Shown in pieces: positions 1 through 26,433 of a stretch of DNA of 32,000 bases; within the stretch, counting starts at the first letter, position 1; each line of letters starts with the position of its first letter. Under the pieces are notes generated by a model that searched no databases, was not told the DNA's origin, and worked only from the letters and a program-made list of their open reading frames with translations. The stretch is from Candidatus Saccharimonadota bacterium. Its GTDB lineage: Bacteria; Patescibacteriota; Saccharimonadia; Saccharimonadales; UBA4665. Where the stretch lies: the NCBI GenBank assembly GCA_963716945.1, contig OY970322.1, positions 390,001 to 422,000 on the forward strand. The letters are read 5' to 3'. The translations under genes were made by a program, and so were the position numbers.

Positions 1-2646
1 GATAGCGGCTCCACCAGTAAGAACACCTTGACCTGGTCGGCGGTGACGGGCGCCACGGCTTACATAGTTTACGAGTCGACCAACGGCACGACCTGGTTTT
101 ATAACGAAGTCACTTCCGGCACGACCTCGATAGTTGATAACGGCACTAACTTTACCTGGACAAACTCGGGCACGCCGCCGAGTACCTCGACGACCGGCGG
201 TAACCTGACGGTTGGCGGTACGGTTCTGTTCCAAACCAAAGCCAACTCTACTACCGCTTTCCAAGTCCAAAACGCCGCCGGCAACAACTTCATCCAGGTA
301 GATACCAACGGTGCCAACCTTTATCTTGGTAACACCGGCATCGCCAGCACGATCCAGGTCGGCAACACCACCGGGGCCGTTGCCCAGACTATCGATATCG
401 GCAACAACGCCACCGCCAGCTCTTCGACAACCTTAGTCATCGGTTCGACTGTCGGTACCAGTCCGGTGACTGTCCAGTCCGGTACTTCCGGCACCACTTT
501 CACGCCGGCCGGTGGCAGCTCCAACACCGGCGTGCTGGTAAAACCGGTGTCTAACACCACTGCCGCCTTCCAAGTCCAAAACACCAGTAACGCCGCCGTC
601 CTGAACGTCGACGCGACTAACGGCACCACCACCCTGCAGGTGGCCACCGGCAACGACACGGCCACCCTTGGCGCCAACCTGGCCCCGACCAACTTCAGCA
701 CCGGCTGGACCGGCACCAACTGGACGCTCGCCAGCACCACTGCCGCCCACAACGCCCTGTCCGGCCACACCCAGGCCTTGTCGCCGACCACGCCCTTGGC
801 CACCACCTCCGGCCAGGTCTACCAGATCAGCTACACCATCACCAACCCGACTACCGCCGGCACCAGCCTGACGGTGGCCCTGGGCAGCACTACCATAGCC
901 TTCTACAACTTCGACGCTAACACGGCCGGCACCTACAGCTTCACCGACACCGTCATGGCGACCGCCCCCAGCAATAATGCCAACCTGACCTTCACGCCTG
1001 ATGCCTCCGGCCTGTTCACCGGCACCATATCGGCCGTTTCGGTCCAACTGGTGACCCAAAGCACCCACCCGGCTCTGGTAGTCGACAACGCTTCCGGCAA
1101 CCCCAACGTCCAGCTGCGGGCCAGTTCCGACACCCACAGCCTGCTCTTAGGCTTTGACGCCGGCGAATCCAACAGCAGCGGCACCAACAACACCGCCGTC
1201 GGTACCTATAGCTTGCAGGACAACGGCAGCGGTTCCTCCAACGTCGCCGTCGGTACCTTCGCTCTCCAGAATAACGCTTCCGGCAACGACAACAGCGCCT
1301 TGGGCTACGAGGCTCTCCAGTTCAACACTTCCGGCGGCCAGAACACGGCTATCGGCTACAATACTCTCAGCAGCAACACCACCGGCAGTTACAACGTGGC
1401 TGTCGGCAGCAACGGCCTGGCGTCCAACACCTTAGGCTACTCCAACACCGCCGTCGGCATAGCCACCTTGCAGAACAACACCACCGGCTCCGGCAACATA
1501 GCCCTGGGCAACAACACCTTGGAGAACAACACCACCGGCAACGGCAACATCGGCATCGGCGGCCTGGGCGATAACACTACCGGCAGTAACAACGTCGCTA
1601 TCGGCGGCCTGGGCAGCAACAATGGTTACTCCAACGTCGCTGTTGGTACCTTCAGCCTATACAACAGCACCGGCGTCAGCAACGACACAGCCATCGGTTA
1701 CCAGGCTTTGCAAAACGACGTCGGCGGCAGCTACAACGTCGGCCTGGGCTACGGCGCCAACGTGCTCAACGGCAGCCTGAACCTTAGCGGCGCCGACGCC
1801 ATCGGGGCCGGCACTCAAGTCGGTGCCAGCAATACCACTATCCTGGGCTACGGCCTTGCCAACGGCGCCAACCAGGCCGTCGGCATCGGCACGTCCTTCG
1901 CCCCCAACGAACTGACGGTCAGCCCGCAGACTTACGGCACCAACGGCACCGTAGGCAGCGGCACGACCATCACCCAGGGCAGCGGCTCCGGTACGGTTAC
2001 CGGCTCGGGAACGGCCTGGACTACCGGCATGGTCGGCGGTACCATCTACTACAGCGACGGCAGTACCGGCACGATCACGGCCGTAAGTTCGGGCACCAGC
2101 CTGACCAGCAGCAACACCACCGGCGGCTGGAGTTCGGCTACTTACAACATCGTCTGGGGCGGCTTCAACGTCAGCAACAGCGATACAGTGCTGCTGCAGC
2201 CGACTAGTAACTCTACTACGGCGTTTCAGATTAAGAACAACACCGGCGGTTTGCTGGTAGCGGCCGATACGACTAACATGACGCTGACCATAGACGGCCA
2301 CATCATCACCGGCAACGGCAATGGCGCTACGACCACGGCCACGCTTAACGGTAACGCCGGTACGGGCGGCAGCCCGAGCTGTACCGTCAGCGGTGACGAC
2401 ACCAGCGGTCAGATTACCCTCAAGACGGGCAGCACCAGCGGTTGGGCGGCCGGCATCCAGTGTACGATTAACTTCGGCACCAGCTACGCCAGCGCGCCGC
2501 ACCCGGTCCTGACCCCGGCCAGTAGCCAAGATGTCAGCGCCGTCAAACCGTACGTTACATCGGGCACGGGCAGTTTCACCGTCAGCTTCATCACCGCCGA
2601 TAACGCCCAGCACACTTACGTCTGGAATTACTTCAACGCCCAATAA
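1..2646 (+). CDS. Giant surface fibre protein, paralog A; only the 3' 881 codons are in the window (5' end lies upstream)
   Basis: Frame +1 is open from nt 1 (DSGSTSKNT precedes the track's TTG at 28). Stop is TAA at 2644-2646. Contains an FN3-like 'LTWSAVTGATAYIVYES' and a recurring module junction 'TTAFQVQN..G....VDT'. Also has a CBM/jelly-roll-like block and ~190 aa of 'NTA.G..AL..NT.G..N' repeats in YadA-head/Hep_Hag or phage tail-fibre style. The C-terminal ~115-aa domain ends TYVWNYFNAQ and is shared with three other ORFs. Confidence 0.9.
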   Translation, partial: DSGSTSKNTLTWSAVTGATAYIVYESTNGTTWFYNEVTSGTTSIVDNGTNFTWTNSGTPPSTSTTGGNLTVGGTVLFQTKANSTTAFQVQNAAGNNFIQVDTNGANLYLGNTGIASTIQVGNTTGAVAQTIDIGNNATASSSTTLVIGSTVGTSPVTVQSGTSGTTFTPAGGSSNTGVLVKPVSNTTAAFQVQNTSNAAVLNVDATNGTTTLQVATGNDTATLGANLAPTNFSTGWTGTNWTLASTTAAHNALSGHTQALSPTTPLATTSGQVYQISYTITNPTTAGTSLTVALGSTTIAFYNFDANTAGTYSFTDTVMATAPSNNANLTFTPDASGLFTGTISAVSVQLVTQSTHPALVVDNASGNPNVQLRASSDTHSLLLGFDAGESNSSGTNNTAVGTYSLQDNGSGSSNVAVGTFALQNNASGNDNSALGYEALQFNTSGGQNTAIGYNTLSSNTTGSYNVAVGSNGLASNTLGYSNTAVGIATLQNNTTGSGNIALGNNTLENNTTGNGNIGIGGLGDNTTGSNNVAIGGLGSNNGYSNVAVGTFSLYNSTGVSNDTAIGYQALQNDVGGSYNVGLGYGANVLNGSLNLSGADAIGAGTQVGASNTTILGYGLANGANQAVGIGTSFAPNELTVSPQTYGTNGTVGSGTTITQGSGSGTVTGSGTAWTTGMVGGTIYYSDGSTGTITAVSSGTSLTSSNTTGGWSSATYNIVWGGFNVSNSDTVLLQPTSNSTTAFQIKNNTGGLLVAADTTNMTLTIDGHIITGNGNGATTTATLNGNAGTGGSPSCTVSGDDTSGQITLKTGSTSGWAAGIQCTINFGTSYASAPHPVLTPASSQDVSAVKPYVTSGTGSFTVSFITADNAQHTYVWNYFNAQ
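647..1058 (+). repeat. 412-bp tract 100% identical to 21864-22275 in giant C
   Basis: Line-by-line comparison of the two stretches found no mismatch. The antisense track ORFs 668-871 and 21885-22088 translate identically. The tract encodes the CBM-like block GNDTATLGANLAPTNFSTGWTGTNW...ISAVSVQLVTQ. Confidence 0.95.
1651..2213 (+). repeat. 563-bp tract 100% identical to 22868-23430 in giant C, at the same 21217-nt offset
   Basis: Compared block by block (ttcagcctatacaacagcacc ... ccgactagtaactc). Identity ends at 2213/23430. Confidence 0.95.
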
Positions 2647-2728
2647 CCGTCTGCTAGCGCTTAAAACCGCTCTCCGCCGCTGCAAATCATAGCTTAGTAA
2701 GGGAGTGCTTGGTATAATCGTAAGCAAC

Positions 2729-3553
2729 ATGCGTAAACCGCGCCACTGGAGACTATTACCAACTGTAACCGGGCTGATCCTGATGGCGGTCAGCTTGAGT
2801 CCGGCTAGCGCCGCTTCGGCTAACATATCCCACTCTTATTCGGCAACTGGTAATATCCCAAACGGCACTATCGTCAGTTTGGACCCGCAGCACTCCGGCT
2901 ACGTCGAGCTGGCCAACACCTCCAACGACAGCCGGCTACTGGGAGTAGCGCTGCCCAGCGACCAATCACTATTAGCGGTTGACCCTAATAGCAGCAAGAC
3001 CCAAGTGGCTATCAGCGGTACTGTCGACACCCTGGTGAGTACGGTCAATGGCAATATTAAAGTCGGCGACCAGGTAAGCGTATCACCGTTTAGCGGGGTA
3101 GGTATGGAAGCGGCGCCTGGCAGCCGGACGATCGGCATCGCCCAAACGGCCTTCACATCTAGTACTAGCCAGGCCACGACTGAACGGGTGAAAGATACGT
3201 CCGGCACGAACCAAGAAGTAAAAGTCGGCTACATCCGGCTCACGATAGCCATTAGCAGCAAAAACGGCGGACCCGGCACCGGCTCTCAGGCCAACTTCTT
3301 ACAAAAGGTAGTCAAGTCATTAACTGGCCGCACCATTTCCACGATCCGCATATTGCTTAGCCTGGCGGTCGCTATTATCTCGTTGATTTCGTTGATCACA
3401 CTCATTTACGCCTCGATTTACGGCAGCATTATCTCGATCGGCCGCAACCCTTTGGCCCAAAGCGCCGTTTTCCGAACGCTGGCTTCGGTTATGAGCATGG
3501 CTTTCCTGACTACGGCCATCGCTTGCGTGACGATTTACTATCTGTTGCGTTAG
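2729..3553 (+). CDS. Membrane protein with N-terminal signal/anchor, beta-rich ectodomain module and a C-terminal two-helix hairpin with an IGRNPLA loop; paralog of 10196-11026
   Basis: The track ORF is 2705-3553 (GTG start). I prefer ATG 2729 (MRKPRHWRLL...). The paralog begins MRNMRKYF, and both genes share -10 box + 10 nt + ATGCGTAAA. The hydrophobic h-region ends in ASA. The ectodomain motif 'GNIKVGDQVSVSPFSGVGMEAAPGSRTIGIAQ' matches the paralog and giant C. Two C-terminal TM helices flank 'IGRNPLAQSAVFRTL'. Stop is TAG. Confidence 0.8.
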   Translation: MRKPRHWRLLPTVTGLILMAVSLSPASAASANISHSYSATGNIPNGTIVSLDPQHSGYVELANTSNDSRLLGVALPSDQSLLAVDPNSSKTQVAISGTVDTLVSTVNGNIKVGDQVSVSPFSGVGMEAAPGSRTIGIAQTAFTSSTSQATTERVKDTSGTNQEVKVGYIRLTIAISSKNGGPGTGSQANFLQKVVKSLTGRTISTIRILLSLAVAIISLISLITLIYASIYGSIISIGRNPLAQSAVFRTLASVMSMAFLTTAIACVTIYYLLR

Positions 3554-3658: not shown

Positions 3659-3727
3659 ATACTTACGGCTGATAATACCAAAATAGTATTTACAGGGCCC
3701 GGCCCCTAACATAAACACCACAAACAA

Positions 3728-10195: not shown

Positions 10196-11026
10196 ATGAG
10201 GAATATGCGTAAATACTTCAAATTCCTAGCCGGTCCCGCCAGCGTTCTGTTCCTGATTGGCTTAGCGGCTTCGGCGGCTGCCTCCGGCGTCCTAATCCAA
10301 AGCTACAATGCCGGCCCTTCGGTCCTGTCCGGCATGCTCGTCGAAACCGAAGCCCGCGACCAGTCTACCGTCGTTCCGCTGACTACCCAGGGCATCCGCG
10401 GTATGCTGGGGGTAGTCGTACCGGCCAACGACGCCGCCCTTGTCCTGTCGCCGCAATCCGCATCATCCCGCCAGGTCCTGGTGGCCGCCTCCGGCAATTA
10501 CGGCGTACTGGTTAGCAACCAGGACGGTTCGGTCAAATCAGGCGACTACCTGACCATGTCGTCGTTACCTGGTATCGCCATGAAAGCCGCCAGCGACCAG
10601 TCCGAGGTTATCGGCCGCGCCGGCGGTGATTTCGATGGTGTTAATAACACCCTATCGACGGTATCGCTCAAACTTGCCGCCGGCCGTTCGGCAAAAGTCT
10701 CCATCGGCCAGGTGCCAGTCAGTGTCCGACTCGGTCCGAACCCCCTCTACCAGAAAAGTAACTTGCCGGGATTTTTGAGCCGGGCGGCCAGCGACGTTTC
10801 TAATAAACCGGGCTCGATCCGGATTTACCTTAGTTCGGCCGTCTTACTGGCTACGCTTATCATCAGCGGCGTGATGTTTTATGGCAGCGTCCGCAGCAGC
10901 ATAACAGCCATCGGCCGCAACCCCCTGGCCAAGCGGGAAATCAGCCGTGACCTCGTCCAATCGGTTGCCGCCGGCCTGGTTATCTTCTTGGCTGGCATCC
11001 TGGCGGCCTACCTCATATTAATTTAG
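10196..11026 (+). CDS. Membrane protein, paralog of 2729-3553 (signal peptide, beta-rich ectodomain, C-terminal hairpin with IGRNPLA loop)
   Basis: ATG at 10196, with an alternative ATG at 10205 giving MRKYFKF. Signal-like FLIGLAASAAAS. 'GSVKSGDYLTMSSLPGIAMKAASDQSEVIGRAG' module. The C-terminal helices flank 'IGRNPLAKREISRDL'. Stop is TAG. It lies 33 nt behind giant B, as its paralog lies behind giant A. Confidence 0.85.
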   Translation: MRNMRKYFKFLAGPASVLFLIGLAASAAASGVLIQSYNAGPSVLSGMLVETEARDQSTVVPLTTQGIRGMLGVVVPANDAALVLSPQSASSRQVLVAASGNYGVLVSNQDGSVKSGDYLTMSSLPGIAMKAASDQSEVIGRAGGDFDGVNNTLSTVSLKLAAGRSAKVSIGQVPVSVRLGPNPLYQKSNLPGFLSRAASDVSNKPGSIRIYLSSAVLLATLIISGVMFYGSVRSSITAIGRNPLAKREISRDLVQSVAAGLVIFLAGILAAYLILI

Positions 11027-11039: not shown

Positions 11040-12023
11040 TTAATCGACGACGAAATAATCGAAACCAAAAGACGTGCCGGCCGGCGGGGCGGTCGAGTCA
11101 CAGACGGTGAAGTTGCTAGTGGTACGGTTGACATAATAACTTAAGCCGCCGGCACTAGAACCGACCGGCGTCAATAGGACATGCGGCGTGGCGTTGTACT
11201 TGGCTGTGAAATCAACGGTTATGAAACAGCCGGCCGCCGGGCCGCTGCCGGTATTGATAGTGATCGAACCGCTGGTATCGCTGCCCGACACGCTGGAAGT
11301 GCCGCCATTACCGAGGGCGCTGCCGTTGGTCCGGCCGGGCGTGCCGCCGCCGACGGTAATGTGGTGGGTCAGTACCAGGTCGCCGTTTAGCTGCAAACTG
11401 CCGGTAGTAAGTTGTGGTGCTGACAACGTTCCGCCGAAAGTTCCGCTGCCGCTAACCTGTAAGCTCTTAGCTATAGTGACCGCGCCTTGGAGGCTGGTGG
11501 TACCGGCGACGGCTAGGTTTTTGCTGACTTGGGCCTGGCCGAACTGGGCGCTGCCGGCAACCGTAACATCGTTTAGGCCCAAAGTGCCGCCGATTTGCAA
11601 GCCGCCGGCGACCTGCAAGTCTTGTCGCATCAGTACTTTACCGGCGAAAATGGCGCTGCTCTGGACATTCAGCACCTGGCTCGAATTACCGACCGTAGCG
11701 TCACTGTCGGCCAGTTGCTGGAGAGTGCTTTGGGATAAACTTTGGGACGAAACGCTGGAGCTGCCTGAATTATGCCTGCTATCGTTGTAGGCGACGAGAA
11801 CGATCCCGGCCGCCACGGCCAATAATAATATGAACAGCAGGAAATAAATATTAACCCGCTTGGCTATGCCGCGGCGCTTCTTCTTGGGCGGCGGCGAGAC
11901 CGAAGGCCCGGGCTCCAGGGTGGTTTCGGGCGGCGCCGGTTTGCCGTTGAGTTCGGGCGGGGGACTCTCCAGCGAAGCTTCCTGGGGGTCTGCTGCTAAC
12001 GGTTCAGATCGGTCCGAGTCCAT
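11040..12023 (-). CDS. Miniature member (327 aa) of the fibre family: cytoplasmic Pro-rich tail, TM anchor, short beta-helix stalk and the shared C-terminal domain
   Basis: ATG at 12023 and TAA at 11040-11042. KKKRRGIAKR followed by TM VNIYFLLFILLLAVAAGIVLVAY, the same topology as giant B. Stalk repeats 'LQVAGGLQIGGTLGLNDVTVAGSAQFG' resemble the pre-terminal stalk of giant C. The C-terminus 'SGSDTSGSITINTGS...YNATPHVLLTP...FGFDYFVVD' aligns with the ends of A, B and C. Confidence 0.85.
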   Translation of the reverse strand: MDSDRSEPLAADPQEASLESPPPELNGKPAPPETTLEPGPSVSPPPKKKRRGIAKRVNIYFLLFILLLAVAAGIVLVAYNDSRHNSGSSSVSSQSLSQSTLQQLADSDATVGNSSQVLNVQSSAIFAGKVLMRQDLQVAGGLQIGGTLGLNDVTVAGSAQFGQAQVSKNLAVAGTTSLQGAVTIAKSLQVSGSGTFGGTLSAPQLTTGSLQLNGDLVLTHHITVGGGTPGRTNGSALGNGGTSSVSGSDTSGSITINTGSGPAAGCFITVDFTAKYNATPHVLLTPVGSSAGGLSYYVNRTTSNFTVCDSTAPPAGTSFGFDYFVVD

Positions 12024-12075
12024 ATGTTATTTATACAGTATAATCGAGGAAAAGCGTAAACGGTATAAACAACCC
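12024..12075. promoter_or_regulatory. 52-bp divergent control region with mirror-image -10 boxes, each 6 nt from a start codon
   Basis: Minus-strand TATAAA (plus-strand 12030-12035) lies 6 nt before the ATG at 12023. Plus-strand TATAAA at 12064-12069 lies 6 nt before the ATG at 12076. There is an additional TATAAT at 12039-12044. No SD on either side. Confidence 0.45.
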
Positions 12076-13558: not shown

Positions 13559-13658
13559 CTAATTATTAAATTGATTCTTAGTCTTGCTAATGCTAGTCTA
13601 GTATTGTAAAGAGCCTCGTGAGGGCACATTAACTGATACGAAATAAAGAGTGCGGCGG

Positions 13659-14972: not shown

Positions 14973-14990
14973 CCGGTATTTAGCGCTAGC

Positions 14991-15002
14991 TGTGGATAAC
15001 TT
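14991..15002 (+). promoter_or_regulatory. 12-mer TGTGGATAACTT, whose first 9 nt are the reverse complement of the DnaA-box consensus TTATCCACA; identical copy at 19470-19481
   Basis: Exact string read at both places. Both copies lie 19-29 nt after a stop codon in AT-rich intergenic DNA, upstream of S2 and giant C respectively. Confidence 0.5.
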
Positions 15003-15108
15003 TTGGTATTTGCATAATCTTTTTGTTGTTGCATCTAAGTACTTATGCTATATTGACGGGGAGAAGGCCCTTTAAGCCGCCAAATAATATAAAAATAATA
15101 ATTAAATT

Positions 15109-16428
15109 ATGATTAAAAAAATCCACACAATCAGTCGCCAAGCCCTAAATAGGGTTAACAGGGTCGTCCTGTTGACGTTAGCAATAGTTGTTACTGCAGG
15201 CCCGGTTATGCTTATCACCCAAACGGCCACGGCCGCCCAGATTACCAACCGTTCAGTGCTGATTTCAACGGCTCAACCCAGCGCCACGGCCACCTACACC
15301 ATCGGTCTGGTGCCAGCCACCGCCGCTGCTATCCAGGGGCTAAAGCTGCAGGCCTGTACAACGGCTCTAGGTACCTGTACGGCGCCGACCGGTTTAAGCT
15401 TTTCCAGCGTGGGCGCTACCGGTACGGTAGCCGGGGCTTGGACGACTTCCACTAACTTCACTACCGGTGCCGGAACCAACGACTGTACGGCCAGTGCCAG
15501 CGTCATATGCGCCAACCGCACGGCGGCGGCCAACGAAACCGGTACGAGTGTTCGCACGGTAGCTTTCACGAACATCACCAACCCCAGCGGCGCCAGCTGT
15601 GCCACTGTCAACTGTACGTTCTTCATCCATATAACGACTTATAGTCTTAACACCTACACTGTGGGCAGCACGGTCGACACCGGCACGGTCGCCAGTTCGA
15701 CCACCCAGCTCTTCACGGTTAACGCGGCGATTCAAGAGCAGCTAACTTTCTGCATCGGCGCCACCACGATTGATGACTCCAACACCACTACGCCGCCGGT
15801 TTGCAGCAGTATTAGCGGCACCTCGCTTAACTTGGGTACCTTGAACTCCGCCGATACTTCGGTGTCGCCGGTCTCGGTCGGCAATGGCGGCGACGGCAAT
15901 AACGGCATCGCCGAACTTAGTACCAATGCCACCAACGGTACGACCGTGGCCTATGACGCGGTGCAGCAAGCCGGCACCAACCACAAGGGCACTCTAAGGG
16001 TAGCTGGCGCCACCTGCAACGCCAGTGCCGGCATTACCAACGACCAGTGCATCAACGCTATCGGTACGACCCAAACGGCCATCACGGCCGGCACCGAAGC
16101 CTACGGCATGACTATCGCCGCCGTCAACTGCAAGGCCACCACGGCCTATTCATGCAGCTTCACGGCTGGTACGTACAACCTGACCAGGAACGCCCAATAT
16201 GACGGCACCGGCGGCAACACCTACCCGACCGACACCAACCTGGTCAGCGGTACCACCAACGCCGGCTACGCCTGGGACGAGACCGGAACCTCGGACACGA
16301 TTGCCAGCTCGACAACTATCGTCGACAAGGAAGCCCTGATCCTAAAATTCGCCGCCACCCCTAACATAGTCACGCCGGCCGGCACCTACACCGCCCAGGC
16401 CGACTTCGTCGCCACGCCGACATTCTAA
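15109..16428 (+). CDS. Secreted beta-rich subunit-like protein S2 (439 aa), tandem paralog of S1
   Basis: ATG start and TAA stop. Signal peptide ends ...TQTATA|AQITNRSVLIST. Collinear with S1 at a 1456-nt offset. The C-terminal ~230 aa are near-identical to S1 and the N-terminal ~200 aa are much more diverged. Confidence 0.9.
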   Translation: MIKKIHTISRQALNRVNRVVLLTLAIVVTAGPVMLITQTATAAQITNRSVLISTAQPSATATYTIGLVPATAAAIQGLKLQACTTALGTCTAPTGLSFSSVGATGTVAGAWTTSTNFTTGAGTNDCTASASVICANRTAAANETGTSVRTVAFTNITNPSGASCATVNCTFFIHITTYSLNTYTVGSTVDTGTVASSTTQLFTVNAAIQEQLTFCIGATTIDDSNTTTPPVCSSISGTSLNLGTLNSADTSVSPVSVGNGGDGNNGIAELSTNATNGTTVAYDAVQQAGTNHKGTLRVAGATCNASAGITNDQCINAIGTTQTAITAGTEAYGMTIAAVNCKATTAYSCSFTAGTYNLTRNAQYDGTGGNTYPTDTNLVSGTTNAGYAWDETGTSDTIASSTTIVDKEALILKFAATPNIVTPAGTYTAQADFVATPTF

Positions 16429-16435
16429 CCGGCCT

Positions 16436-17482: not shown

Positions 17483-17524
17483 AAATACTTTATCTCACTA
17501 ATATAAAATGATACACTTACGCTG

Positions 17525-18547
17525 ATGAAGTTAACTAAGAGGGTAGCCGAGGCCGTGCTTTACTTAAAACGCCCCTTGTTAGGGCTGGGCCTTGCCCTAA
17601 CCGTGGCCTTATCGACCGGCCTGACCGCCCAGGCCGCCACCACGCCCGCCGGCAGCGCCAGCGGCCTAAGCATATCGCCCCTCCGCCAGGAACTGACCCT
17701 CAAGCCCGGCCAAGCTGACGAGATCAGCATCACCCTCAAGAACATTACCGGCGGCCCTATAACCGCCAAGGTAGCCGTCCAGGATTTCGAATCCGACAAC
17801 CTGACCGGCAACCCCAAGATTATCACCGACCCTAAGGCCAACAACCCGGCCAGCATCCGCAACTTCCTGGTCGGCCTTGGCAACATACCGCTGGCCACCG
17901 GCGAGCAGAAGACATTCACCATACCGGTCCAAGCCCCGGCTAATGCCGCGCCCGGCGCTTATTACGGCCTGATCGAGTACCAAGCCATACCTGTCAATAA
18001 CTCCAACCAGGGCGGCAATAGCCAGGTGGGCCTGTCGGCCGCCGTCAGCCAGCTGGTCTTCATCACCGTACCCGGCAACATTACCCAGAGGATGGAGATC
18101 AACGGTATCCACGTTTACCGGGATAAACTCGGTACCAAAGAGGGCCTGTTCTTTACCAGCCCGCCGAAAACCGACGGCATAATGCTGACCAACCTCGGCA
18201 ACGGTTTTGCCAAGCCCTTTGGCCGGATTAGCGTCCAAAACTCCAGCGGCAAGGAGATTTACGCCTATCAGCTCAACGGCGGTATAACCCCCGAACTGGT
18301 CCTGCCGCACAGCAGCCGCCTCTTCATTAACGGCATCAGTAACATCAAACGGCCGGGCCGCTACACGATAGTCGCCAACATCTCCTACGGCTCCGGTTCA
18401 GCCATCCTGACCGGCAAAAAGACCTTCTGGTACATCCCGGCCTGGCTGCCGGCCGCCGTCATCGTCGTCCTGGCCCTGCTGGCCGGCGCGGCCGTCCTGG
18501 CCCGCCGCCGTTACAAGCGCGGCCCCGGCCACCAATACCACCGTTAG
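17525..18547 (+). CDS. C-terminally anchored surface protein with a DUF916/DUF3324-like (Ig-like) ectodomain; candidate assembly/chaperone-like component
   Basis: Signal peptide ends ...GLTAQA|ATTP. 'LTLKPGQADEISITLKNITGGPITAKVAVQDF...GNPKII...IPLATGEQKTFTIPVQAPANAAPGAYYGLIEYQ' follows the pattern I recall for DUF916 proteins of Firmicute WxL loci. C-terminal TM WLPAAVIVVLALLAGAAVLA is followed by RRRYKR. The family assignment is from memory and was not searched. Confidence 0.8.
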   Translation: MKLTKRVAEAVLYLKRPLLGLGLALTVALSTGLTAQAATTPAGSASGLSISPLRQELTLKPGQADEISITLKNITGGPITAKVAVQDFESDNLTGNPKIITDPKANNPASIRNFLVGLGNIPLATGEQKTFTIPVQAPANAAPGAYYGLIEYQAIPVNNSNQGGNSQVGLSAAVSQLVFITVPGNITQRMEINGIHVYRDKLGTKEGLFFTSPPKTDGIMLTNLGNGFAKPFGRISVQNSSGKEIYAYQLNGGITPELVLPHSSRLFINGISNIKRPGRYTIVANISYGSGSAILTGKKTFWYIPAWLPAAVIVVLALLAGAAVLARRRYKRGPGHQYHR

Positions 18548-18550
18548 GAC

Positions 18551-19441
18551 ATGAAAAACCATCGTGCCGCCGTCCGGTTGTTGAAACGAAGCGGACCGGC
18601 CATAGCCGGCCTCCTAATCGGCGGCCTGGTGCTGTTAGCGCCGCCTCGTCCGGCCGTAGCGGCAACCGTGCAAAATAACAGTGCCGTCGGCGTCCAGGGC
18701 GTCATCCCCAGCCCGCCGCCGAGCCGCGGCGGCACCATCGCCGTACCCGGTAACGGCGCCTCATTCACCAGCGGCACCATAACCGTCAGCGGCCTCTGTC
18801 CGACCGGCTTGCTGGTCAAAGTCTTCGACAATAACGTCTTCGTCGGCTCGGTTATCTGTTCCAACGGCAGCTACTCGCTGCAGATCAACCTCTTCAACGG
18901 CCAGAACGAGCTGGTGACGCGGGTTTACGACGCCCTTGACCAGCCGGGGCCCGATTCCGGCACGACCACCGTAACTTTCACCGATGCCCAGTTCGCCCAG
19001 TTCGGTACCCAGGTGACGCTGAGCAGCGTCTATGCCGAACGCGGTGCTGCCCCGGGAACGGAGTTGGACTGGCCGATCTTGCTGAGTGGCGGTAGCAGCC
19101 CTTATGCCCTCAGCGTTGACTGGGGTGACGGTTCGCCATCGGACCTGATGAGCCTCGTCAACACCGGCACAGTAACCATTAAGCATACTTATAAGTCGGC
19201 CGGAGTCTACAATGTCGTAGTCAAGGCGACCGACGCCAATGGCCAGGCGGCTTTTCTGCAGCTGGTCGGGCAGGCCACCGGCGCTATCCAGAGCAACAAA
19301 GGCGGCAGCAGTATCCTGGTCAAGAAGCAAGTTTTATGGTGGCCAACAACCTCTATGATACCGCTGATTTTCATCGCCTTTTGGATCGGCCGCAGTTATC
19401 AGATTCACGCTTTGCGTAAGAAGTTCGAAAGCGTAGATTAG
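18551..19441 (+). CDS. C-terminally anchored protein with an Ig-like domain and a PKD domain
   Basis: Starts 3 nt after the previous stop. Signal/anchor AIAGLLIGGLVLLAPP. The PKD signature 'LSVDWGDGSPSD...HTYKSAGVYNVVVKATDANGQ' is present. C-terminal TM MIPLIFIAFWIG is followed by a basic tail. Stop is TAG. Confidence 0.85.
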   Translation: MKNHRAAVRLLKRSGPAIAGLLIGGLVLLAPPRPAVAATVQNNSAVGVQGVIPSPPPSRGGTIAVPGNGASFTSGTITVSGLCPTGLLVKVFDNNVFVGSVICSNGSYSLQINLFNGQNELVTRVYDALDQPGPDSGTTTVTFTDAQFAQFGTQVTLSSVYAERGAAPGTELDWPILLSGGSSPYALSVDWGDGSPSDLMSLVNTGTVTIKHTYKSAGVYNVVVKATDANGQAAFLQLVGQATGAIQSNKGGSSILVKKQVLWWPTTSMIPLIFIAFWIGRSYQIHALRKKFESVD

Positions 19442-19777: not shown

Positions 19778-22700
19778 ATGTACGAAACTGCTCCGCGAGG
19801 GCATATCGCGTCCGAACGTACCCATGGGCTACGGGCTAAGAGGGTAATTTTTGCCGTTGGTGGCAGCTTGCTGGCCCCGACGGTGTTTTTATATACGCGC
19901 GCGTACGCGCGTATTAACAAGCTGCGTACCCGCGGTTTCATTCTGGCCATTGTGGCGCTGGCCCTGTTAACTTCGGTCGGCCTGAGTTTGTTGAGGCCGG
20001 CCCAAACCGTTGCCGCCACTGACAGCAGTATCAACTTCCAGGCCCGGTTGGAAACCAACACCGGTGCGATCGTGCCTGACGGCTGGTACAACATTGAGTT
20101 CAAGATGTATAGCGTTTCCAGCGGCGGCAGCCCCGAGTGGACCGAAGACTACACTTGGAACAATGGCAGTGCCAACTGTACTACACCCGTTTTCCAGGCT
20201 ACCGGCGACTGCCGCGTCAAGGTGGTTAACGGCTACCTGACGGTTAATCTGGGCTCGATTACCAGTTTCCCGGGCACGATTAACTGGGACCAGCAGCAGT
20301 GGGTGACGATGAACATCGGCGGTACCGGCGGCAGCGGTTCTTTCCCCGGCATCGGCGACGGCGAAATGAACCCCCGTTTGCAGCTAACCGGTGTACCGTA
20401 CTCCTTCCGGTCAGGGCAGGCTGGCGGCTTGTTCGATCCGGCTGGCACTGGCGCGGCTCTAAGCTGGATTACCCAAACCGCCGCCAACGTGCTGCAGCTA
20501 CCTAACGAAGGCGGAACATTGTGTATCGACGGTGACACTAGTGGTTGTGGTTTTGCTCCGGGTACCGGAGGCGCGGGTTATATCCAGAACCAGAATGCTT
20601 CGGCCCAAACTACCTCCAACTTCTGGATTAGCGGTAGCGGCCAGGCTACTACTTCGTTCATAGCGCCGACTTATACCGGGGGCGGCGCGGTCGCCGTATC
20701 CTCCGGGGGGACTAATACCAATTTGACCCTTACGGCCAACGGTACCGGGACGGCTAGCCTAGATACGGGGGCTAACGGCGGCACGGTATCCGTAGCTTTG
20801 ACGGCCGGCACGTTAAACCTGGCAAATTCTGCCAGCGCCACGACTATTAACATCGGCAACACGTCCGGCGCTACCGGTATTACCGAGCGCGTCGGTACCG
20901 GCAACTACAGCCTGGACGGTGTCGCCGGCTCCACCTACAGCCTGGGCGCTTCCACGACCACGGGTACTATCCTAATTGGCGGCACGGCTCAGACCGGCAG
21001 CATCACCCTGGGCAGCTCTTCCGGCACTAACTCCGTCCTAATAGGCAACGGTGCCGGGGCTACGACCGTCAACATCGCCAACACCGAAACCGGCGGTGCC
21101 GTCAACATCGGTACGGCTATGACTACCGGCACGGTCTCCATTGGCGGTACCGGCGCCCAGACTGGCACCATTAGCCTGGGTATCGGTACCGGCGTCCAGA
21201 CGATTAACCTGGCCACTGGCGGTACCGGCGCCAAGACCGTCACGGTCGGTTCGGCCGCTTCCACTTCGTCATTACTGCTACAATCCGGTACCGGCAACTT
21301 GTCCCTGCAGACCCAGGGCACCGGCACCTTAGGCGTTGGCAACAATGCCGTGGCGCAGAACCTGGCCATCGGCAATGCTACGGGGGCTACGACCGTGTCG
21401 GTCCTATGCGGTACGGGCATCTGTGGCTTCGGGAATAACGCTACCAGCCATAGTACTAGTATCGGGTCCGGTACAGGTGTTAGCGCTTTGACTCTTCAGG
21501 GCGGCACCGGTGGCGCCTCACTGGATTCTGGCACGGGCAGCATAACAATCGGTAACAGTGCCAACAACAAGACCATCACAATCGGTGCCAGTGGGAGCAC
21601 GGCCAATACTACGACCGTCAATATCGCTACTTCTACAGGTGCCTCTCAGACGGTCAATATCGGCTCGAACTCTGGCACCAGTCCCGTCACCATAGGTAGC
21701 GGCACCAGCGGTATCACGCTTAACCCGTCAGGCGGCAGTTCCAACCAGGGCGTCCTGGTCAAGCCTGACGCCGACACGACCGCTGCCTTCCAGATTCAAA
21801 GGGCCGGCAGTAGCACCGACCTGCTCAACGCCGATACTGCCAATATGACGCTGACTGTCCAAGCCGGCAACGACACGGCCACCCTTGGCGCCAACCTGGC
21901 CCCGACCAACTTCAGCACCGGCTGGACCGGCACCAACTGGACGCTCGCCAGCACCACTGCCGCCCACAACGCCCTGTCCGGCCACACCCAGGCCTTGTCG
22001 CCGACCACGCCCTTGGCCACCACCTCCGGCCAGGTCTACCAGATCAGCTACACCATCACCAACCCGACTACCGCCGGCACCAGCCTGACGGTGGCCCTGG
22101 GCAGCACTACCATAGCCTTCTACAACTTCGACGCTAACACGGCCGGCACCTACAGCTTCACCGACACCGTCATGGCGACCGCCCCCAGCAATAATGCCAA
22201 CCTGACCTTCACGCCTGATGCCTCCGGCCTGTTCACCGGCACCATATCGGCCGTTTCGGTCCAACTGGTGACCCAGAACACTGACCCAGTTCTAGTAGTT
22301 AACAACGCCTCTGCCGTTGACGACCTAGAAGTCCGGGCCAGCAGCAGTACTACCAACCTCTTCGTCGGTCTCAGTGCGGGAGCGTCAAACGCCACCGGTA
22401 TCGACAATCTGGCGCTGGGCAACAACGCTTTCCAGTACAACACTGGCGGCAGTACCAACCTGGCTATTGGCGCTGATGCCCTCCAGTACAACACCACCGG
22501 CAACGACAACAGCGCCTTGGGCTACGAGGCTCTCCAGTTCAACACTTCCGGCGGCCAGAACACGGCCCTGGGTTCCGGCGCTCTCAGCGACAATACGATC
22601 GGCAGTTACAACGTGGCTGTAGGCGGCAACTCGCTCCAGTACAACAGTTCGGGCTACTCCAACACCGCCGTCGGCATAGCCACCTTGCAGAACAACACCA

Positions 22701-25700
22701 CCGGCTCCGGCAACTTGGCCATCGGCAATAACGCCCTTGGCGGCAACACCACCGGCAACAACAACATCGGCATCGGTGGCCTGGGCGTCAACAGCACCGG
22801 TTCGTTTAACGTCGGCATCGGCAGCTTGCGCGAGAACAACGGCAACGCCAACGTCGGCATCGGCGTCTTCAGCCTATACAACAGCACCGGCGTCAGCAAC
22901 GACACAGCCATCGGTTACCAGGCTTTGCAAAACGACGTCGGCGGCAGCTACAACGTCGGCCTGGGCTACGGCGCCAACGTGCTCAACGGCAGCCTGAACC
23001 TTAGCGGCGCCGACGCCATCGGGGCCGGCACTCAAGTCGGTGCCAGCAATACCACTATCCTGGGCTACGGCCTTGCCAACGGCGCCAACCAGGCCGTCGG
23101 CATCGGCACGTCCTTCGCCCCCAACGAACTGACGGTCAGCCCGCAGACTTACGGCACCAACGGCACCGTAGGCAGCGGCACGACCATCACCCAGGGCAGC
23201 GGCTCCGGTACGGTTACCGGCTCGGGAACGGCCTGGACTACCGGCATGGTCGGCGGTACCATCTACTACAGCGACGGCAGTACCGGCACGATCACGGCCG
23301 TAAGTTCGGGCACCAGCCTGACCAGCAGCAACACCACCGGCGGCTGGAGTTCGGCTACTTACAACATCGTCTGGGGCGGCTTCAACGTCAGCAACAGCGA
23401 TACAGTGCTGCTGCAGCCGACTAGTAACTCCAATAAGGCGTTTCAGGTACAAAACAATCTAGGCACGACACTCTTAAACGTAGATACGTCCGGTAATACT
23501 CTTAGTCTCGGCGTCACTGGCAGTACGGCTATCGCCAGTACGATAAACATTGCCAACACCACCGGCAACGCCACCCAAACCATCAACATCGGTGCCACGA
23601 ATGCTGCCGGCAACACCGTCCTGATACAGGGAGGTACAGGTACGGGTGTTTCTCTCCAGGTAGCGGCCAGCGGGACGATTGCGGTCGGCACAACAGTTCA
23701 AACCAGCACTCTAGATCTTGGCAACACCAGCGCCTCCTCTACAACCCTGATTAATGGCGGCACCGGCGCCAGCGCCATATCCTTACAAGCCGGTGCCGGC
23801 GGAACGATCTTGCTTGGCACAAGCGGCTCTACGGCCAACGCGACTACTGTAGATATAGCTAACACCACCGGCAACGCCACCCAAACCATCAACATCGGTG
23901 CCACAAATGCTGCCGGCAACACCGTCCTGATACAGGGCGGTACAGGTACAGGCGTCTCCATCCAGGTCGCCGGTACGGGCACAATTGCTATTGGTACTAC
24001 CAACGCCGACACCGTCAGCCTCGGTGCTGTTGGCAGTACAGCCAATGCCACTACCGTCAACATTGCTAACACTACTGGTGCTGCTATCCAGACGGTTAAC
24101 CTAGGTTCGCTCTCCAGCACTTCGCTTACTAAGATCCAAGGTGGTACCAGTGCTTCGGCTATAATCTTGCAATCAGGTAACGGGAGCACGATTACAATAG
24201 GCAGCCAGACTGCCAGCACCACTAACGCCATAATTATAGGTGCTTCCGCGGCTACTGCGAACGCCGACAACATAAGCATTGATAACACCAGCGGTACCAA
24301 TGCCGGCACTATCACCATCGGCGGCAGCGGCACTGCCACAGGTGCCATAACGCTTGGCCAGTCCACCGGCTCCCAAACGGTTAATGTCGGTGTTGGTGCA
24401 CCCGCAGCGGGAGCAACTCAAACAATTAAGATAGGTACGACTGTTTCTGCTACTACCGGCACTACTGCGATTACGATTGGCGGCACTAGTACAACCACAA
24501 ACGGCGCCACTAGCGTTAGTATCCTGGCCGGCAACCACTCCGGCTCGACTGTCGCTAATGGTTCCAGGACTACTACCGACACGGACTCTACGGGTATCAA
24601 AGTATCGCTTGGTGATATGACAAGTAGTATTGGACTCTGTATTGGTGGCTTGCTTACCGGGGTGGCCCCAACTTCCGGTACTGCCTACGAGCTAGTTGAC
24701 TGTAATAATACTCCCACCGCTGACTATGCCGAGGAATATCCGGTCGCGGCAGGTGTAGGCGTTGGCGATGTCGTAGCTACCGGCACCCAAATGGTTAACA
24801 CATATGATACTGATGGTCCTAACGGGTCGGTTGACTGGAGTACAGTGAAAGGCCAGATTACCCAGCTAGTTCAATCTGATCAGGCTTACCAGTCGAACGC
24901 TATCGGTATTGTTTCGGATAACAACTCCGATTTCAGCTCTACTGGTTACAATATCAAGGCTGAAGACAACCCCATGTCCGTCGCCTTAAACGGCCGTGTT
25001 CCGGTGAATGTTACTACTGAGAATGGACCAATTGAACCTGGTGATTATCTAACTACTTCGGCTACTATTCCAGGCTATGCCATGAAAGCCACCCAAGCTG
25101 GCTATGTTATTGGCCGCGCTTTGAGCTCATACGACGGTTCCGGACCGGGTCAAGTAATGGTCTTCGTCGGTGATGGCTACTATCCTGGACCTGATGCCAG
25201 CAGCTACCTGCAACAAGACAGTGACGCTAACCTGGCAAGCCTTTCTGTAAACGGGAACACACTACTTTCTAACCTAGACGTAACCGGCGACAGTACCCTA
25301 AGCGATCTAAACGTCAGCGGACCCACAACCCTGAATGGCCTGACCGTAACCGGCGACGCCAACGTCCAGGGCAACCTGACGGTAGCAGGCAACGCCACGA
25401 TCGGCGGCTCGCTAACCGTAACCGGCCTGACCAGTGTGGCGGACCTGGAGGTCAGCGGCCACATAATTACCTCGGGCGGGGAACCGACGTCCCAGATTCA
25501 GGCCGCGGCCGGCAGCGACGCGGTTGTCAGCATCGCCGGCACCGATACCACCGGCACGATAAGCATTACCACCGGTAGCAACCCGACATCCGGCTCGCTA
25601 GCCGATATCCTCTTCAGCAAAGCCTACGGCGCCGCGCCGCACATAGTCCTCAGCCCGTCCAATAACAATGCCGCCGGCCTGCGCTACTTCAAGGGCACGA

Positions 25701-25786
25701 CGACCACCAACGACTTCATGTTCAACGTCATCGACAACCCGGCCCCGAACACGACCTACCAGTACGACTACTTCATTGGCCAGTAG
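19778..25786 (+). CDS. Giant surface fibre protein, paralog C (2002 aa)
   Basis: ATG start and TAG stop. Signal/anchor GFILAIVALALLTSVGLSLL..AQTVAA|TD. Long '..T.NI(A/G)....G..QT(I/V)N(I/L)G' beta-helix-like repeats. A CBM-like block and Hep_Hag-like repeats are shared with A. A tandem-repeat insert (23431-24560) is followed by a beta-barrel-like module 'ADYAEEYPV...GPIEPGDYLTTSATIPGYAMKATQAGYVIGRAL'. A stalk of 'L.V.G' heptad-like units precedes the C-terminal shared domain, which ends TYQYDYFIGQ. Confidence 0.93.
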   Translation: MYETAPRGHIASERTHGLRAKRVIFAVGGSLLAPTVFLYTRAYARINKLRTRGFILAIVALALLTSVGLSLLRPAQTVAATDSSINFQARLETNTGAIVPDGWYNIEFKMYSVSSGGSPEWTEDYTWNNGSANCTTPVFQATGDCRVKVVNGYLTVNLGSITSFPGTINWDQQQWVTMNIGGTGGSGSFPGIGDGEMNPRLQLTGVPYSFRSGQAGGLFDPAGTGAALSWITQTAANVLQLPNEGGTLCIDGDTSGCGFAPGTGGAGYIQNQNASAQTTSNFWISGSGQATTSFIAPTYTGGGAVAVSSGGTNTNLTLTANGTGTASLDTGANGGTVSVALTAGTLNLANSASATTINIGNTSGATGITERVGTGNYSLDGVAGSTYSLGASTTTGTILIGGTAQTGSITLGSSSGTNSVLIGNGAGATTVNIANTETGGAVNIGTAMTTGTVSIGGTGAQTGTISLGIGTGVQTINLATGGTGAKTVTVGSAASTSSLLLQSGTGNLSLQTQGTGTLGVGNNAVAQNLAIGNATGATTVSVLCGTGICGFGNNATSHSTSIGSGTGVSALTLQGGTGGASLDSGTGSITIGNSANNKTITIGASGSTANTTTVNIATSTGASQTVNIGSNSGTSPVTIGSGTSGITLNPSGGSSNQGVLVKPDADTTAAFQIQRAGSSTDLLNADTANMTLTVQAGNDTATLGANLAPTNFSTGWTGTNWTLASTTAAHNALSGHTQALSPTTPLATTSGQVYQISYTITNPTTAGTSLTVALGSTTIAFYNFDANTAGTYSFTDTVMATAPSNNANLTFTPDASGLFTGTISAVSVQLVTQNTDPVLVVNNASAVDDLEVRASSSTTNLFVGLSAGASNATGIDNLALGNNAFQYNTGGSTNLAIGADALQYNTTGNDNSALGYEALQFNTSGGQNTALGSGALSDNTIGSYNVAVGGNSLQYNSSGYSNTAVGIATLQNNTTGSGNLAIGNNALGGNTTGNNNIGIGGLGVNSTGSFNVGIGSLRENNGNANVGIGVFSLYNSTGVSNDTAIGYQALQNDVGGSYNVGLGYGANVLNGSLNLSGADAIGAGTQVGASNTTILGYGLANGANQAVGIGTSFAPNELTVSPQTYGTNGTVGSGTTITQGSGSGTVTGSGTAWTTGMVGGTIYYSDGSTGTITAVSSGTSLTSSNTTGGWSSATYNIVWGGFNVSNSDTVLLQPTSNSNKAFQVQNNLGTTLLNVDTSGNTLSLGVTGSTAIASTINIANTTGNATQTINIGATNAAGNTVLIQGGTGTGVSLQVAASGTIAVGTTVQTSTLDLGNTSASSTTLINGGTGASAISLQAGAGGTILLGTSGSTANATTVDIANTTGNATQTINIGATNAAGNTVLIQGGTGTGVSIQVAGTGTIAIGTTNADTVSLGAVGSTANATTVNIANTTGAAIQTVNLGSLSSTSLTKIQGGTSASAIILQSGNGSTITIGSQTASTTNAIIIGASAATANADNISIDNTSGTNAGTITIGGSGTATGAITLGQSTGSQTVNVGVGAPAAGATQTIKIGTTVSATTGTTAITIGGTSTTTNGATSVSILAGNHSGSTVANGSRTTTDTDSTGIKVSLGDMTSSIGLCIGGLLTGVAPTSGTAYELVDCNNTPTADYAEEYPVAAGVGVGDVVATGTQMVNTYDTDGPNGSVDWSTVKGQITQLVQSDQAYQSNAIGIVSDNNSDFSSTGYNIKAEDNPMSVALNGRVPVNVTTENGPIEPGDYLTTSATIPGYAMKATQAGYVIGRALSSYDGSGPGQVMVFVGDGYYPGPDASSYLQQDSDANLASLSVNGNTLLSNLDVTGDSTLSDLNVSGPTTLNGLTVTGDANVQGNLTVAGNATIGGSLTVTGLTSVADLEVSGHIITSGGEPTSQIQAAAGSDAVVSIAGTDTTGTISITTGSNPTSGSLADILFSKAYGAAPHIVLSPSNNNAAGLRYFKGTTTTNDFMFNVIDNPAPNTTYQYDYFIGQ
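21864..22275 (+). repeat. Partner copy of 647-1058 (100% identical)
   Basis: See 647-1058. The offset is 21217 nt. Confidence 0.95.
22868..23430 (+). repeat. Partner copy of 1651-2213 (100% identical)
   Basis: See 1651-2213. The offset is the same 21217 nt. Confidence 0.95.
23555..23956 (+). repeat. In-frame tandem repeat with a 306-nt (102-aa) period inside giant C
   Basis: aacaccaccggcaacgccacccaaaccatcaacatcggtgccac... at 23555 recurs at 23861. The first 44 nt are identical, then one mismatch, then 32 identical nt. The peptide IANTTGNATQTINIGATNAAGNTVLIQGGTGTGVS is repeated, and a third, more diverged unit follows (NIANTTGAAIQTVNLG...). Confidence 0.85.
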
Positions 25787-25881
25787 AAGTAGAAAACCGA
25801 GGAATGATTTTAATCATATCCACGCTTACCCTTTGATTCTATAATTCAAGACATAATTAGTAGTTAACGGGGGAGTGCAGC

Positions 25882-26433
25882 ATGAAAAAGTCTTTTCGGG
25901 GAAAGCTAGGCCTGTTCATGGTTATAGTATTGGCGGTTGTAGGCGGTGGTTTAACCGATTCTATAGTTAGGGCTGCCATACCTGATAGCAACGGAGTGAT
26001 ACATGCTTGTTATACGACCGGAGTCCTAGCTAAGGTAAAGATTATAGACAGTGCTACTCAAAGCTGTGGTCCTCTAGAAACACCGATTAGCTGGAGCCAA
26101 AGCGGCGGTTCATCTACTGCCTTAGTAAGCTTAAATGATGACGGTACTCTTAACACGCAGTACTCCAGAGGAGTCTCGAGCATTAAGCTTGTAAGAGATG
26201 GCACAAATCAAACCTATAATGTGTGTTTCGACCTTACTAGTCCACCGGTATGGGGCACAAGTAGTGGCGGAGGCTATGAATACGTTACCTCAAGCAGTAT
26301 CCCTACTGATGTATCACAGGTATCTCAGCTCTGTGGCGCAGGATATAATGCAGTAAGTACTTCTTGGGGAGACCCATCAGTTAACCCATACTCTTCCCCA
26401 TACTCCTCAATACGATATATATTCTGGAATTAG
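25882..26433 (+). CDS. Small secreted protein (183 aa), function unknown
   Basis: SD GGGGGAG lies 6 nt before the ATG. Signal-like LGLFMVIVLAVVGGG...VRA|A. The N-terminal motif 'IPDSNGVIHACY...C...ETPISWSQSGG' is one I recall at the start of many uncharacterised secreted bacterial proteins. The gene looks visibly more AT-rich than its neighbours. Stop is TAG. Confidence 0.75.
   Translation: MKKSFRGKLGLFMVIVLAVVGGGLTDSIVRAAIPDSNGVIHACYTTGVLAKVKIIDSATQSCGPLETPISWSQSGGSSTALVSLNDDGTLNTQYSRGVSSIKLVRDGTNQTYNVCFDLTSPPVWGTSSGGGYEYVTSSSIPTDVSQVSQLCGAGYNAVSTSWGDPSVNPYSSPYSSIRYIFWN

Follow-up and report, generated by a model that had tools for sequence, protein, structure and literature searches.

The window, a 32,000-nucleotide (nt) stretch of a Candidatus Saccharimonadota genome (assembly GCA_963716945.1, contig OY970322.1, positions 390,001 to 422,000), carries what is most likely a composite surface-structure locus of a Saccharimonadales (candidate phyla radiation, CPR/Patescibacteria) bacterium, arranged around a pam pilus operon that is flanked by fibres. 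Judged by sequence, the operon is the region 12806-19441, which is predicted to code for PamT, three Pam-type pilins, one anchored chaperone and PamR. This core is an already-named and very recently described system, here in a simpler composition than in the operon of Candidatus Mycosynbacter amalyticus. The genes of the operon and their predicted products, numbered g1 to g14 along the window, are:

12806..13558, + strand: g7, PamT, a single-domain tip pilin (NCBIfam NF058579 and NF058581)
13650..14972, + strand: g8 (S1), a two-domain Pam-type pilin in the presumed PamA position, with a Cys-rich, remodelled C-terminal domain
15109..16428, + strand: g9 (S2), a paralog of g8 at 76% identity
16436..17482, + strand: g10 (S3), a two-domain Pam pilin in the presumed PamE position, directly 5' of the chaperone and PamR
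17525..18547, + strand: g11, a membrane-anchored pilin chaperone of PamC/PamD type (profile matches, architecture, position 5' of PamR)
18551..19441, + strand: g12, PamR, an RbmA-like terminator/anchor with two immunoglobulin (Ig)/PKD-type domains and a C-terminal transmembrane (TM) helix

Three of these products pass curated Pam models of NCBIfam (release 20). g7, which has a signal peptide, scored 271 bits against the equivalog NF058579 CPR_pilus_PamT (cut-off 240) and 140 bits against NF058581, the Pam pilin C domain (cut-off 55). The latter model, CPR_Pam_pilin_C, was also matched by g10 (145 bits, cut-off 55), and g12 scored 370 bits against the equivalog NF058578 CPR_pilus_PamR (cut-off 300), together with a Pfam PKD match and a TM helix at residues 261-279. 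A first-pass annotation, made from the letters and the translated reading frames alone, had proposed that the locus is not captured by named systems; the three matches overturn this, and as the core system was demonstrated experimentally in 2026, the core itself is no longer new.

The remaining two pilins, g8 and g9, count as Pam pilins indirectly. Their N-terminal domain is common to g10 (33% identity, E 1e-19), and the last 46 residues of the g8 family profile align to the C-terminus of PamT (hhalign probability 90%, E 1.8e-6). The g8 (S1) family has 439 homologs, and the C-terminal half of the g8/g9 family holds more than 10 invariant cysteines, whereas the two or three cysteine pairs reported for M. 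amalyticus PamA and PamB are far fewer. Set against the order of the M. amalyticus accessions (PamT 289, PamA 287, PamE 285, PamD 284, PamR 282), the gene order would put g8/g9 in the PamA position, g10 in that of PamE and g11 in that of PamD. The gaps separating g9, g10, g11 and g12 are 3-42 nt, which is consistent with one operon. A promoter and terminator scan of the window gave counts not above those of shuffled sequence, and we draw no claim on transcription units from it.

On both sides of the operon lie genes for fibres, three of them giant and one miniature (the mini fibre), which share a C-terminal domain (CTD), and for two hairpin proteins (hp):

1..2646, + strand: g1, giant fibre, C-terminal 881 amino acids (aa), with 17-residue repeats at ~397-560 and the CTD at ~nt 2296-2643
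647..2229, + strand: recombination block in g1, with 92-100% DNA identity to the block 21864-23446 in g13
2705..3553, + strand: g2, hairpin protein hpA, a divergent paralog with a signal peptide, a beta-rich ectodomain and two C-terminal TM helices
3728..10162, + strand: g3, giant fibre of 2144 aa, type II anchored by a TM helix at 53-71, with the CTD at ~nt 9824-10159
10196..11026, + strand: g4, hairpin protein hpB, the conserved ortholog (homologs, AlphaFold2 (AF2) model, synteny)
11040..12023, - strand: g5, mini fibre of 327 aa, divergent from the pam genes, with the CTD at residues 225-327 (nt 11043-11351)
19778..25786, + strand: g13, giant fibre of 2002 aa, with a TM helix at 54-72 and the CTD at ~nt 25457-25783
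24887..25144, + strand: copy of the hp ectodomain inside g13, residues 1704-1789 (hp profile, E 4.7e-15)

The arrangement of these genes in relatives separates a conserved part of the locus from a variable one. We scanned GTDB species representatives with an alignment of 12 hp sequences and obtained 80 loci (cited here by L numbers), nearly all from Saccharibacteria and a few from other CPR, of which 53 were informative in that they have at least 8.5 kb of sequence downstream of hp. Mini fibre and PamT followed hp in a fixed order in 43 of the 53, and wherever the flank was long enough the pilins, the chaperone and PamR came in the order of the window. Across Saccharibacteria the order that holds is hp, ATP synthase (where present), mini fibre on the minus strand, PamT, pilins, chaperone and PamR, and in nearly all of the 43 loci with both genes the mini-fibre gene is found immediately upstream of PamT, on the other strand. 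The giants adjoin the pam genes in a few relatives only (L002, L003, L004 and L028), and we regard them as variable, mosaic add-ons. In relatives that have no giants (L034, L039, L043, L045, L055 and L066), PamR is followed by a conserved trio of ~385, 595 and 180 aa, which is absent from the window. Co-occurrence of the parts across related genomes, the test named in the first-pass annotation, was borne out for hp, mini fibre, PamT and pilins, and also for chaperone and PamR in loci with a long enough flank, but not for the giants.

The chaperone gene links the operon to a family known from Firmicutes. g11 has a signal peptide, a DUF916/WxLIP_PGBD Ig-like domain, a second beta domain and a C-terminal TM helix (308-326), and is predicted to be a membrane-anchored Ig-fold chaperone. 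Pfam WxLIP_PGBD (PF06030) was matched by 10 of 11 g11-family members from related loci (best E 2.5e-11), the homologs with this link lying in L004, L012, L027, L028, L034, L039, L043, L055 and L066, and the g11 family profile matched the Enterococcus faecium EfmWxLIP1 structures 9i25 and 9i1y at E 3.4e-4. An earlier description of g11 as DUF916-like is in line with this, and the profile matches firmly place the Pam chaperone family within the Firmicute WxLIP (DUF916) family. DUF3324 had no match in the g11 family. For the pilin clients a WxL link is not detectable by sequence: no WxL domain was found in g7-g10 with Pfam, in 34 PamT-family members at E<=1, or against the PDB. The Pam preprint makes no mention of a WxL relationship (10.64898/2026.03.03.709456).

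The CTD that g1, g3, g5 and g13 have in common is ~110-145 aa long, with 29-40% identity and 17 invariant columns, which agrees with the initial view of three giants and one miniature fibre ending in the same domain. A profile of the four CTDs, run against 1.84 billion proteins, matched 4,757 cluster representatives. The proteins concerned are 140-2,950 aa long and have the domain at their extreme C-terminus in every case, and judged by this profile search the CTD is a large, unnamed family and a marker of CPR surface fibres. The families of the locus had been called private, which does not hold: beside the CTD representatives and the 439 homologs of the S1 pilin there are at least 189 homologs of g4, every one annotated hypothetical, and more than 1,340 of the mini fibre at 55-70% identity.

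The giants carry recognisable modules. A 17-residue unit is present in 7-8 copies in g1 (~397-560) and g13 (877-995) and matches phage tail-spike PHROGs, and residues 411-587 of g1 matched PHROG tail-spike and virion-structural families at E 6e-18 to 6e-26. g3 has a carbohydrate-binding module (CBM), CBM_4_9, at 1730-1873 (37 bits, above the Pfam cut-off) and, by eye, four strict and two degenerate [LIM]YW blades of YW(TD) type at ~1200-1500. Of the module vocabulary first suggested for the locus the CBM and the propeller blades were retained, and two items were not: the YYN...YYYDG..F motif has a single occurrence (g3 residues 145-161), and the 17-residue repeats have no Pfam Hep_Hag match. 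The block common to g1 and g13 is colinear over 1.6 kb and contains stretches of 100% identity, with 21 kb between the two genes, as seen by repeat search, blastn and sliding identity, and the CTDs of the same two genes are ~29% identical. A shared block with differing CTDs suggests that the giants exchange cassettes, through a gene conversion or recombination event of recent date.

The mini fibre g5 has the same layout in small, with a Pro-rich cytoplasmic tail, a TM helix (59-84), a bactofilin-like beta-helix stalk (118-224) and the CTD (225-327). Its AF2 model has the TM helix; the beta-helix is modelled with moderate confidence, the C-terminal beta-sandwich confidently (CTD predicted local distance difference test score, pLDDT, 84-93). 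The best Foldseek match in the PDB was the phi297 tail spike (E 2.7e-3), and R-pyocin fibre tips, CBMs and an H-type lectin were also found; since these PDB matches are weak, we call the knob only lectin/CBM/tail-fibre-tip-like. In BFVD the model matched a protein of an uncultured Caudovirales phage (E 1e-9, root-mean-square deviation (rmsd) 1.6 Å over 116 columns, 28% identity), with tail-fibre and H-type-lectin entries ranked lower. Homologs of g5 bear the JGI label bactofilin, and the likeness of the predicted beta-helix to bactofilin is real, but g5 was rejected as a member of that family, as it scored 20.1 bits at a Pfam cut-off of 27.9 and its stalk is predicted to lie outside the membrane.

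How such a locus may work can be taken from the published Pam system. Electron cryomicroscopy (cryo-EM) of M. amalyticus filaments at 2.8 and 3.6 Å showed two-domain pilins, PamA and PamB only, joined by donor-strand exchange; the operon also codes for PamE, the single-domain PamT and PamR, and for PamC and PamD, which are PapD/FimC-like chaperones that keep a C-terminal TM helix (10.64898/2026.03.03.709456). The authors concluded that no trans-envelope machinery is involved and that anchored chaperones suffice (10.64898/2026.03.03.709456). We carried the steps over from this model and took the gene identities from homology. All products would cross the membrane by Sec, and the anchored g11 chaperone would cap the open Ig-like C-terminal domain of each pilin. 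The pilins would polymerise by donor-strand exchange, with PamT at the tip, g8/g9 as the shaft and g10 as an adaptor, until PamR inserts its N-terminal strand, which would end elongation and fix the filament to the membrane. Neither an usher nor an ATPase would take part. Pfam and NCBIfam profile searches found no enzyme, transporter, sortase, usher, secretin or ATPase in 1-26433, as first annotated, and no LPXTG motif was seen in the window translations; the early suggestion that Sec and the encoded anchored proteins suffice matches the published core model.

The fibres g5, g1, g3 and g13 would stand beside the pilus as type II anchored proteins and would not be part of it, with the N-terminus in the membrane and the C-terminus outside. 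They would probably be trimeric adhesins, whose knob and modules may bind glycans of the host-cell surface or the envelope. The giants, with their CBM, propeller and tail-spike-like modules, would in addition give a variable specificity via recombination.

Several observations weigh against a Pam pilus flanked by host-binding fibres. g8 and g9 have no direct match to any NCBIfam Pam model, and at E<=10 neither they nor g11 match a PamA or Pam chaperone model; when g8, g10 and the PamT-family profile were compared with PDB sequences, no Pam pilin was found either. g11 itself scored 19.1 bits against Pfam WxLIP_PGBD, below the cut-off of 27.3, and its PapD/FimC-like fold is putative. With a single chaperone and no clear PamB/PamC pair, the composition departs from the M. 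amalyticus operon, and the assembly mechanism described there is based on the preprint structures and AlphaFold complexes and not on genetics (10.64898/2026.03.03.709456). On the side of the fibres, Foldseek found nothing below E 1e-3 for g5 in the PDB, so the fold matches are weak, and it is we who infer trimerisation, orientation and ligand. The pilins are 26-50% identical among relatives, as against 55-70% for the mini fibre, and a mini fibre that is more conserved than the pilins would sooner be expected to have a conserved self partner than a variable host receptor. This argues for a conserved ligand of the mini fibre, possibly a structure of the cell itself, for instance the pilus base or its envelope.

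The hairpin proteins are the part of the locus where two roles compete. g2 and g4 are paralogs (29% identity, E 9e-24), both with the C-terminal TM hairpin that had been noticed at first, and an invariant GRNPL loop links the two TM helices in an alignment of 28 sequences. In the AF2 model of g4 (pLDDT 82) the ectodomain resembles, by Foldseek, trimeric phage capsid decoration/cement proteins (Sf11, Pam3, T1 and HFTV1; E 2e-4 to 7e-3). The ectodomain module also occurs within giants, in g13 as well as in Levyibacteria (L078) and Portnoybacteria (L081), and because of this the hp proteins are probably membrane bases or oligomerisation partners. g1 and g3 have no match to the hp ectodomain profile, and each has a separate hp gene 3' of it.

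The other role is suggested by the neighbours of hp in relatives. In 41 of the 53 informative loci, including those of Daviesbacteria and other distant CPR, hp is directly followed by genes for b-like, OSCP, alpha, gamma, beta and epsilon subunits (exemplified by L009, L077, L079 and L080), and a canonical a or c subunit gene (atpB/atpE) is absent from the 10 kb on either side of hp in all 80 loci. A report on the oral Saccharibacterium Southlakia gives the order atpI-a-c-b-delta-alpha-gamma-beta-epsilon, with atpI-a-c at exactly the slot of hp and with no obvious pam or fibre genes after it (PMC10633639). It is therefore conceivable that hp is a c-subunit-derived variant subunit of a CPR ATP-synthase-like operon, which came to lie beside the giants after the operon was lost or moved, and we hold this as a tentative alternative, strong enough to be kept in mind though not the one we favour. 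The hairpin of g4 does superpose on F-ATP synthase c subunits (target-normalised TM-score 0.86-0.90, rmsd 1.2-1.6 Å, 21-22% identity), as any TM hairpin superposes on a c subunit, and the sole PDB match of the hairpin profile at E<=10 was a c subunit (E 0.16), in register on the R-N/Q-P loop. Against this, hhalign of the hairpin with a c-subunit alignment that serves as a lead only gave a probability of 9%, which is weak. Helix 2 of hp has no ion-binding carboxylate or conserved acidic residue across the 28 sequences, and the hairpin has neither a GxGxGxG motif nor a match to Pfam ATP-synt_C. Further, divergent hp paralogs stand beside giants with no ATP synthase nearby (L070, L073, L074 and L076), and the ectodomain occurs inside giants. 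ATP-synthase-like genes are missing at this position in the window and in L004, L012, L028, L034, L039, L043, L045, L055 and L066.

What hp has of a c subunit, a hairpin with an R-Q/N-P loop and a position upstream of atpF, is insufficient for c-subunit membership. Homology of hp and the c subunit is not established, and hp may be either a fibre base or a variant membrane subunit of an ATP synthase. The original view of the hairpin proteins as partners dedicated to the giants is not supported, as hp heads the ATP-synthase-like operon in most informative loci, although one link to the giants exists in the ectodomain fused in g13. Among small reading frames, the one match to canonical atpE/atpB, in L068 (6957-7142), runs antisense inside a Met-tRNA synthetase gene and was discarded as spurious.

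A bolder extension would have hp as a c-subunit derivative that has no ion site, bears a trimer-type phage-decoration ectodomain in common with giant fibres and, in many CPR lineages, replaces atpI-a-c at the head of the operon, so that an F1-type ATPase is coupled to surface fibres or pili. The idea comes from the F1-plus-stator operon sitting between the giant-fibre/hp gene and the mini-fibre and pam genes, and we rate it as speculation with a slim chance of being right. If true, it would mean an ATP-driven surface machine rather than a proton-coupled synthase, and this machine could be a retraction or force generator. The F1-like gliding motor of Mycoplasma mobile is comparable in principle to such an ATP-driven surface machine. 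A retraction or force generator is what the Pam preprint says is missing (10.64898/2026.03.03.709456).

For the locus as a whole, the first-pass annotation had proposed one integrated 26-kb attachment apparatus, in which all 14 genes take part and giants, hairpin partners, pilins and anchors co-assemble. This we consider unlikely. In its favour, the genes adjoin one another and code for exported products throughout, hp, mini fibre and pam genes keep their order in 43 of 53 loci, with the mini fibre divergent from PamT almost everywhere, and the hp ectodomain, fused in g13 and encoded separately after g1 and g3, gives a split/fused pattern. However, giants flank the pam genes in few relatives and elsewhere unrelated genes follow PamR, and in 41 of 53 loci an ATP-synthase-like operon of 5.4 kb separates hp from the mini fibre. 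The CTD family has thousands of members of all lengths, so that most must lie outside pam loci, and the M. amalyticus filaments seen by cryo-EM hold only PamA and PamB (10.64898/2026.03.03.709456). Taken together, the results support a cell-surface appendage locus, as had been claimed, and speak for a composite one with a pam core.

A further alternative concerns the core alone, which might be a CPR counterpart of the WxL/Csc clusters, that is, a wall-associated complex that binds polymers or host surfaces and in which g11 holds g7-g10, and not a long pilus. In Firmicute WxL clusters, according to PMC10599100, WxLIP is an Ig-Ig-TM protein whose DUF916 hairpin is predicted by AlphaFold to insert into the WxL client. 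The chaperone family is of the DUF916/WxLIP_PGBD type, and the logic of the cluster is parallel, with a small PamT like the small WxL protein, larger clients that have N-terminal add-on domains, and an Ig-Ig-TM partner. This is offset by the absence of a WxL domain in the PamT family and of DUF3324 in the searches given above, and by the M. amalyticus homologs, whose long helical filaments were resolved at 2.8 and 3.6 Å (10.64898/2026.03.03.709456). We judge a WxL-type complex in place of a pilus to be quite improbable. That the fibres are prophage or tailocin remnants, as the PHROG tail-spike and virion-structural matches and the tail-fibre and tail-spike folds in BFVD and PDB might suggest, is hardly credible, since Pfam, NCBIfam and PHROG found no other phage gene in the window, g3, g5 and g13 all have an N-terminal membrane anchor, the mini fibre is encoded as a fixed gene on Saccharibacteria chromosomes, and a search of 2.9 million IMG/VR viral contigs with the mini-fibre alignment left none of 33 pattern matches confirmed.

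The composite pam locus occupies most of the window. Positions 1-26433 hold 14 open reading frames (ORFs), 13 on the + strand and the mini fibre g5 (11040-12023) on the - strand. By a hydropathy scan, all products that have their N-terminus inside the window carry a signal or anchor segment at that end, g1 being truncated at the window edge with its N-terminus outside; for these products the early claim of 14 consecutive secreted or membrane-anchored proteins is confirmed. By the same scan g3, g5 and g13 have a cytoplasmic tail of ~50 residues and then a single TM helix, g2 and g4 a signal peptide and a C-terminal two-helix hairpin, g11 and g12 a signal peptide and a C-terminal TM helix, and the signal peptide of g10 is visible, though weaker. 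Two further genes belong to this stretch:

12073..12768, + strand: g6, bitopic protein with a TM helix at 25-43, between mini fibre and PamT (ORF, hydropathy)
25882..26433, + strand: g14, small secreted protein of 183 aa (ORF, translation)

g6 has homologs in or next to this position only in L012, L047, L063 and L065 and is a lineage-specific accessory gene. g14 has no homolog among the related loci and no family match in Pfam, NCBIfam or PHROG, and with no support from relatives or families its membership of the system is not shown. Downstream of the gene island are the 23S rRNA (26923-30104) and then the 5S rRNA (30340-30454). The 23S match covers 3182 nt against a model of 2925 positions, which suggests insertions of ~250 nt, and as there is no 16S gene upstream of the 23S here, the two appear unlinked. 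ORFs called at 27314-29862 fall within the rRNA and are spurious. At the right edge a 201-aa ORF (30513-31118, - strand) has no Pfam or NCBIfam match, and a further ORF lies at 31533-31913 (+ strand).

Four points go beyond the literature searched: that the chaperone is linked to WxLIP, that the CTD family is so large, that the mini fibre is a fixed neighbour, and that hp, ATP synthase and giants form a triangle. The mini fibre is as conserved as housekeeping genes and adjoins the pam operon in nearly all loci that have both. The bridge from the chaperone to WxLIP suggests that the long-unexplained WxL clusters may also use strand complementation and, together with the CTD family and the hp link, it has a bearing on the way in which ultrasmall epibionts locate their hosts and stay attached to them.

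Compared with known systems, hp shares with the F-type c subunit the two-helix hairpin, the R-N-P loop and, in most relatives, a gene position upstream of a b-like gene; it differs by an extracellular domain of 170 aa and by having no conserved carboxylate, no glycine zipper and no ATP-synt_C match. The fibres resemble phage tail fibres and spikes and R-type pyocin fibres in the beta-helical stalk, the C-terminal beta-sandwich knob and the PHROG tail-spike repeats, and one metagenomic phage protein has the knob fold at 28% identity, whereas the fibres of the window are TM-anchored, chromosomal, conserved across a bacterial order and not found among viral contigs. With the WxL/Csc clusters the locus has in common the g11 family, with its DUF916/WxLIP_PGBD domain, second beta domain and C-terminal TM helix, and the set of one small and several larger secreted clients; in contrast, the searches here detected neither a WxL domain nor DUF3324 nor an LPXTG protein, and the CPR clients form filaments.

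Chaperone-usher pili (Pap/Fim) are likewise built from incomplete Ig-like pilins with a donor strand and capping chaperones, and have a tip subunit that has no donor strand and a terminator subunit (10.64898/2026.03.03.709456). Here there is no match to an usher family, the organism is monoderm and the predicted chaperone is anchored in the membrane; Pam pilins are two-domain proteins in which the donor strand is the inter-domain linker, and no sequence similarity to the chaperone-usher proteins was detected. The closest system is the Pam pilus of M. amalyticus. It has PamT, two-domain pilins, an anchored Ig-fold chaperone and PamR in the same order, Sec export with no usher or ATPase, a CPR host and a tail fibre-like gene, here the mini fibre, beside the operon, and ATP synthase genes are likewise found in loci related to the window. 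The window differs from it by one chaperone instead of PamC and PamD, by no obvious PamB module, by the duplication of the shaft pilin (g8/g9), whose Cys-rich C-terminal domain escapes the NCBIfam domain model, and by the absence of the ATP synthase genes, with three giants and a second hp gene inserted around the operon.

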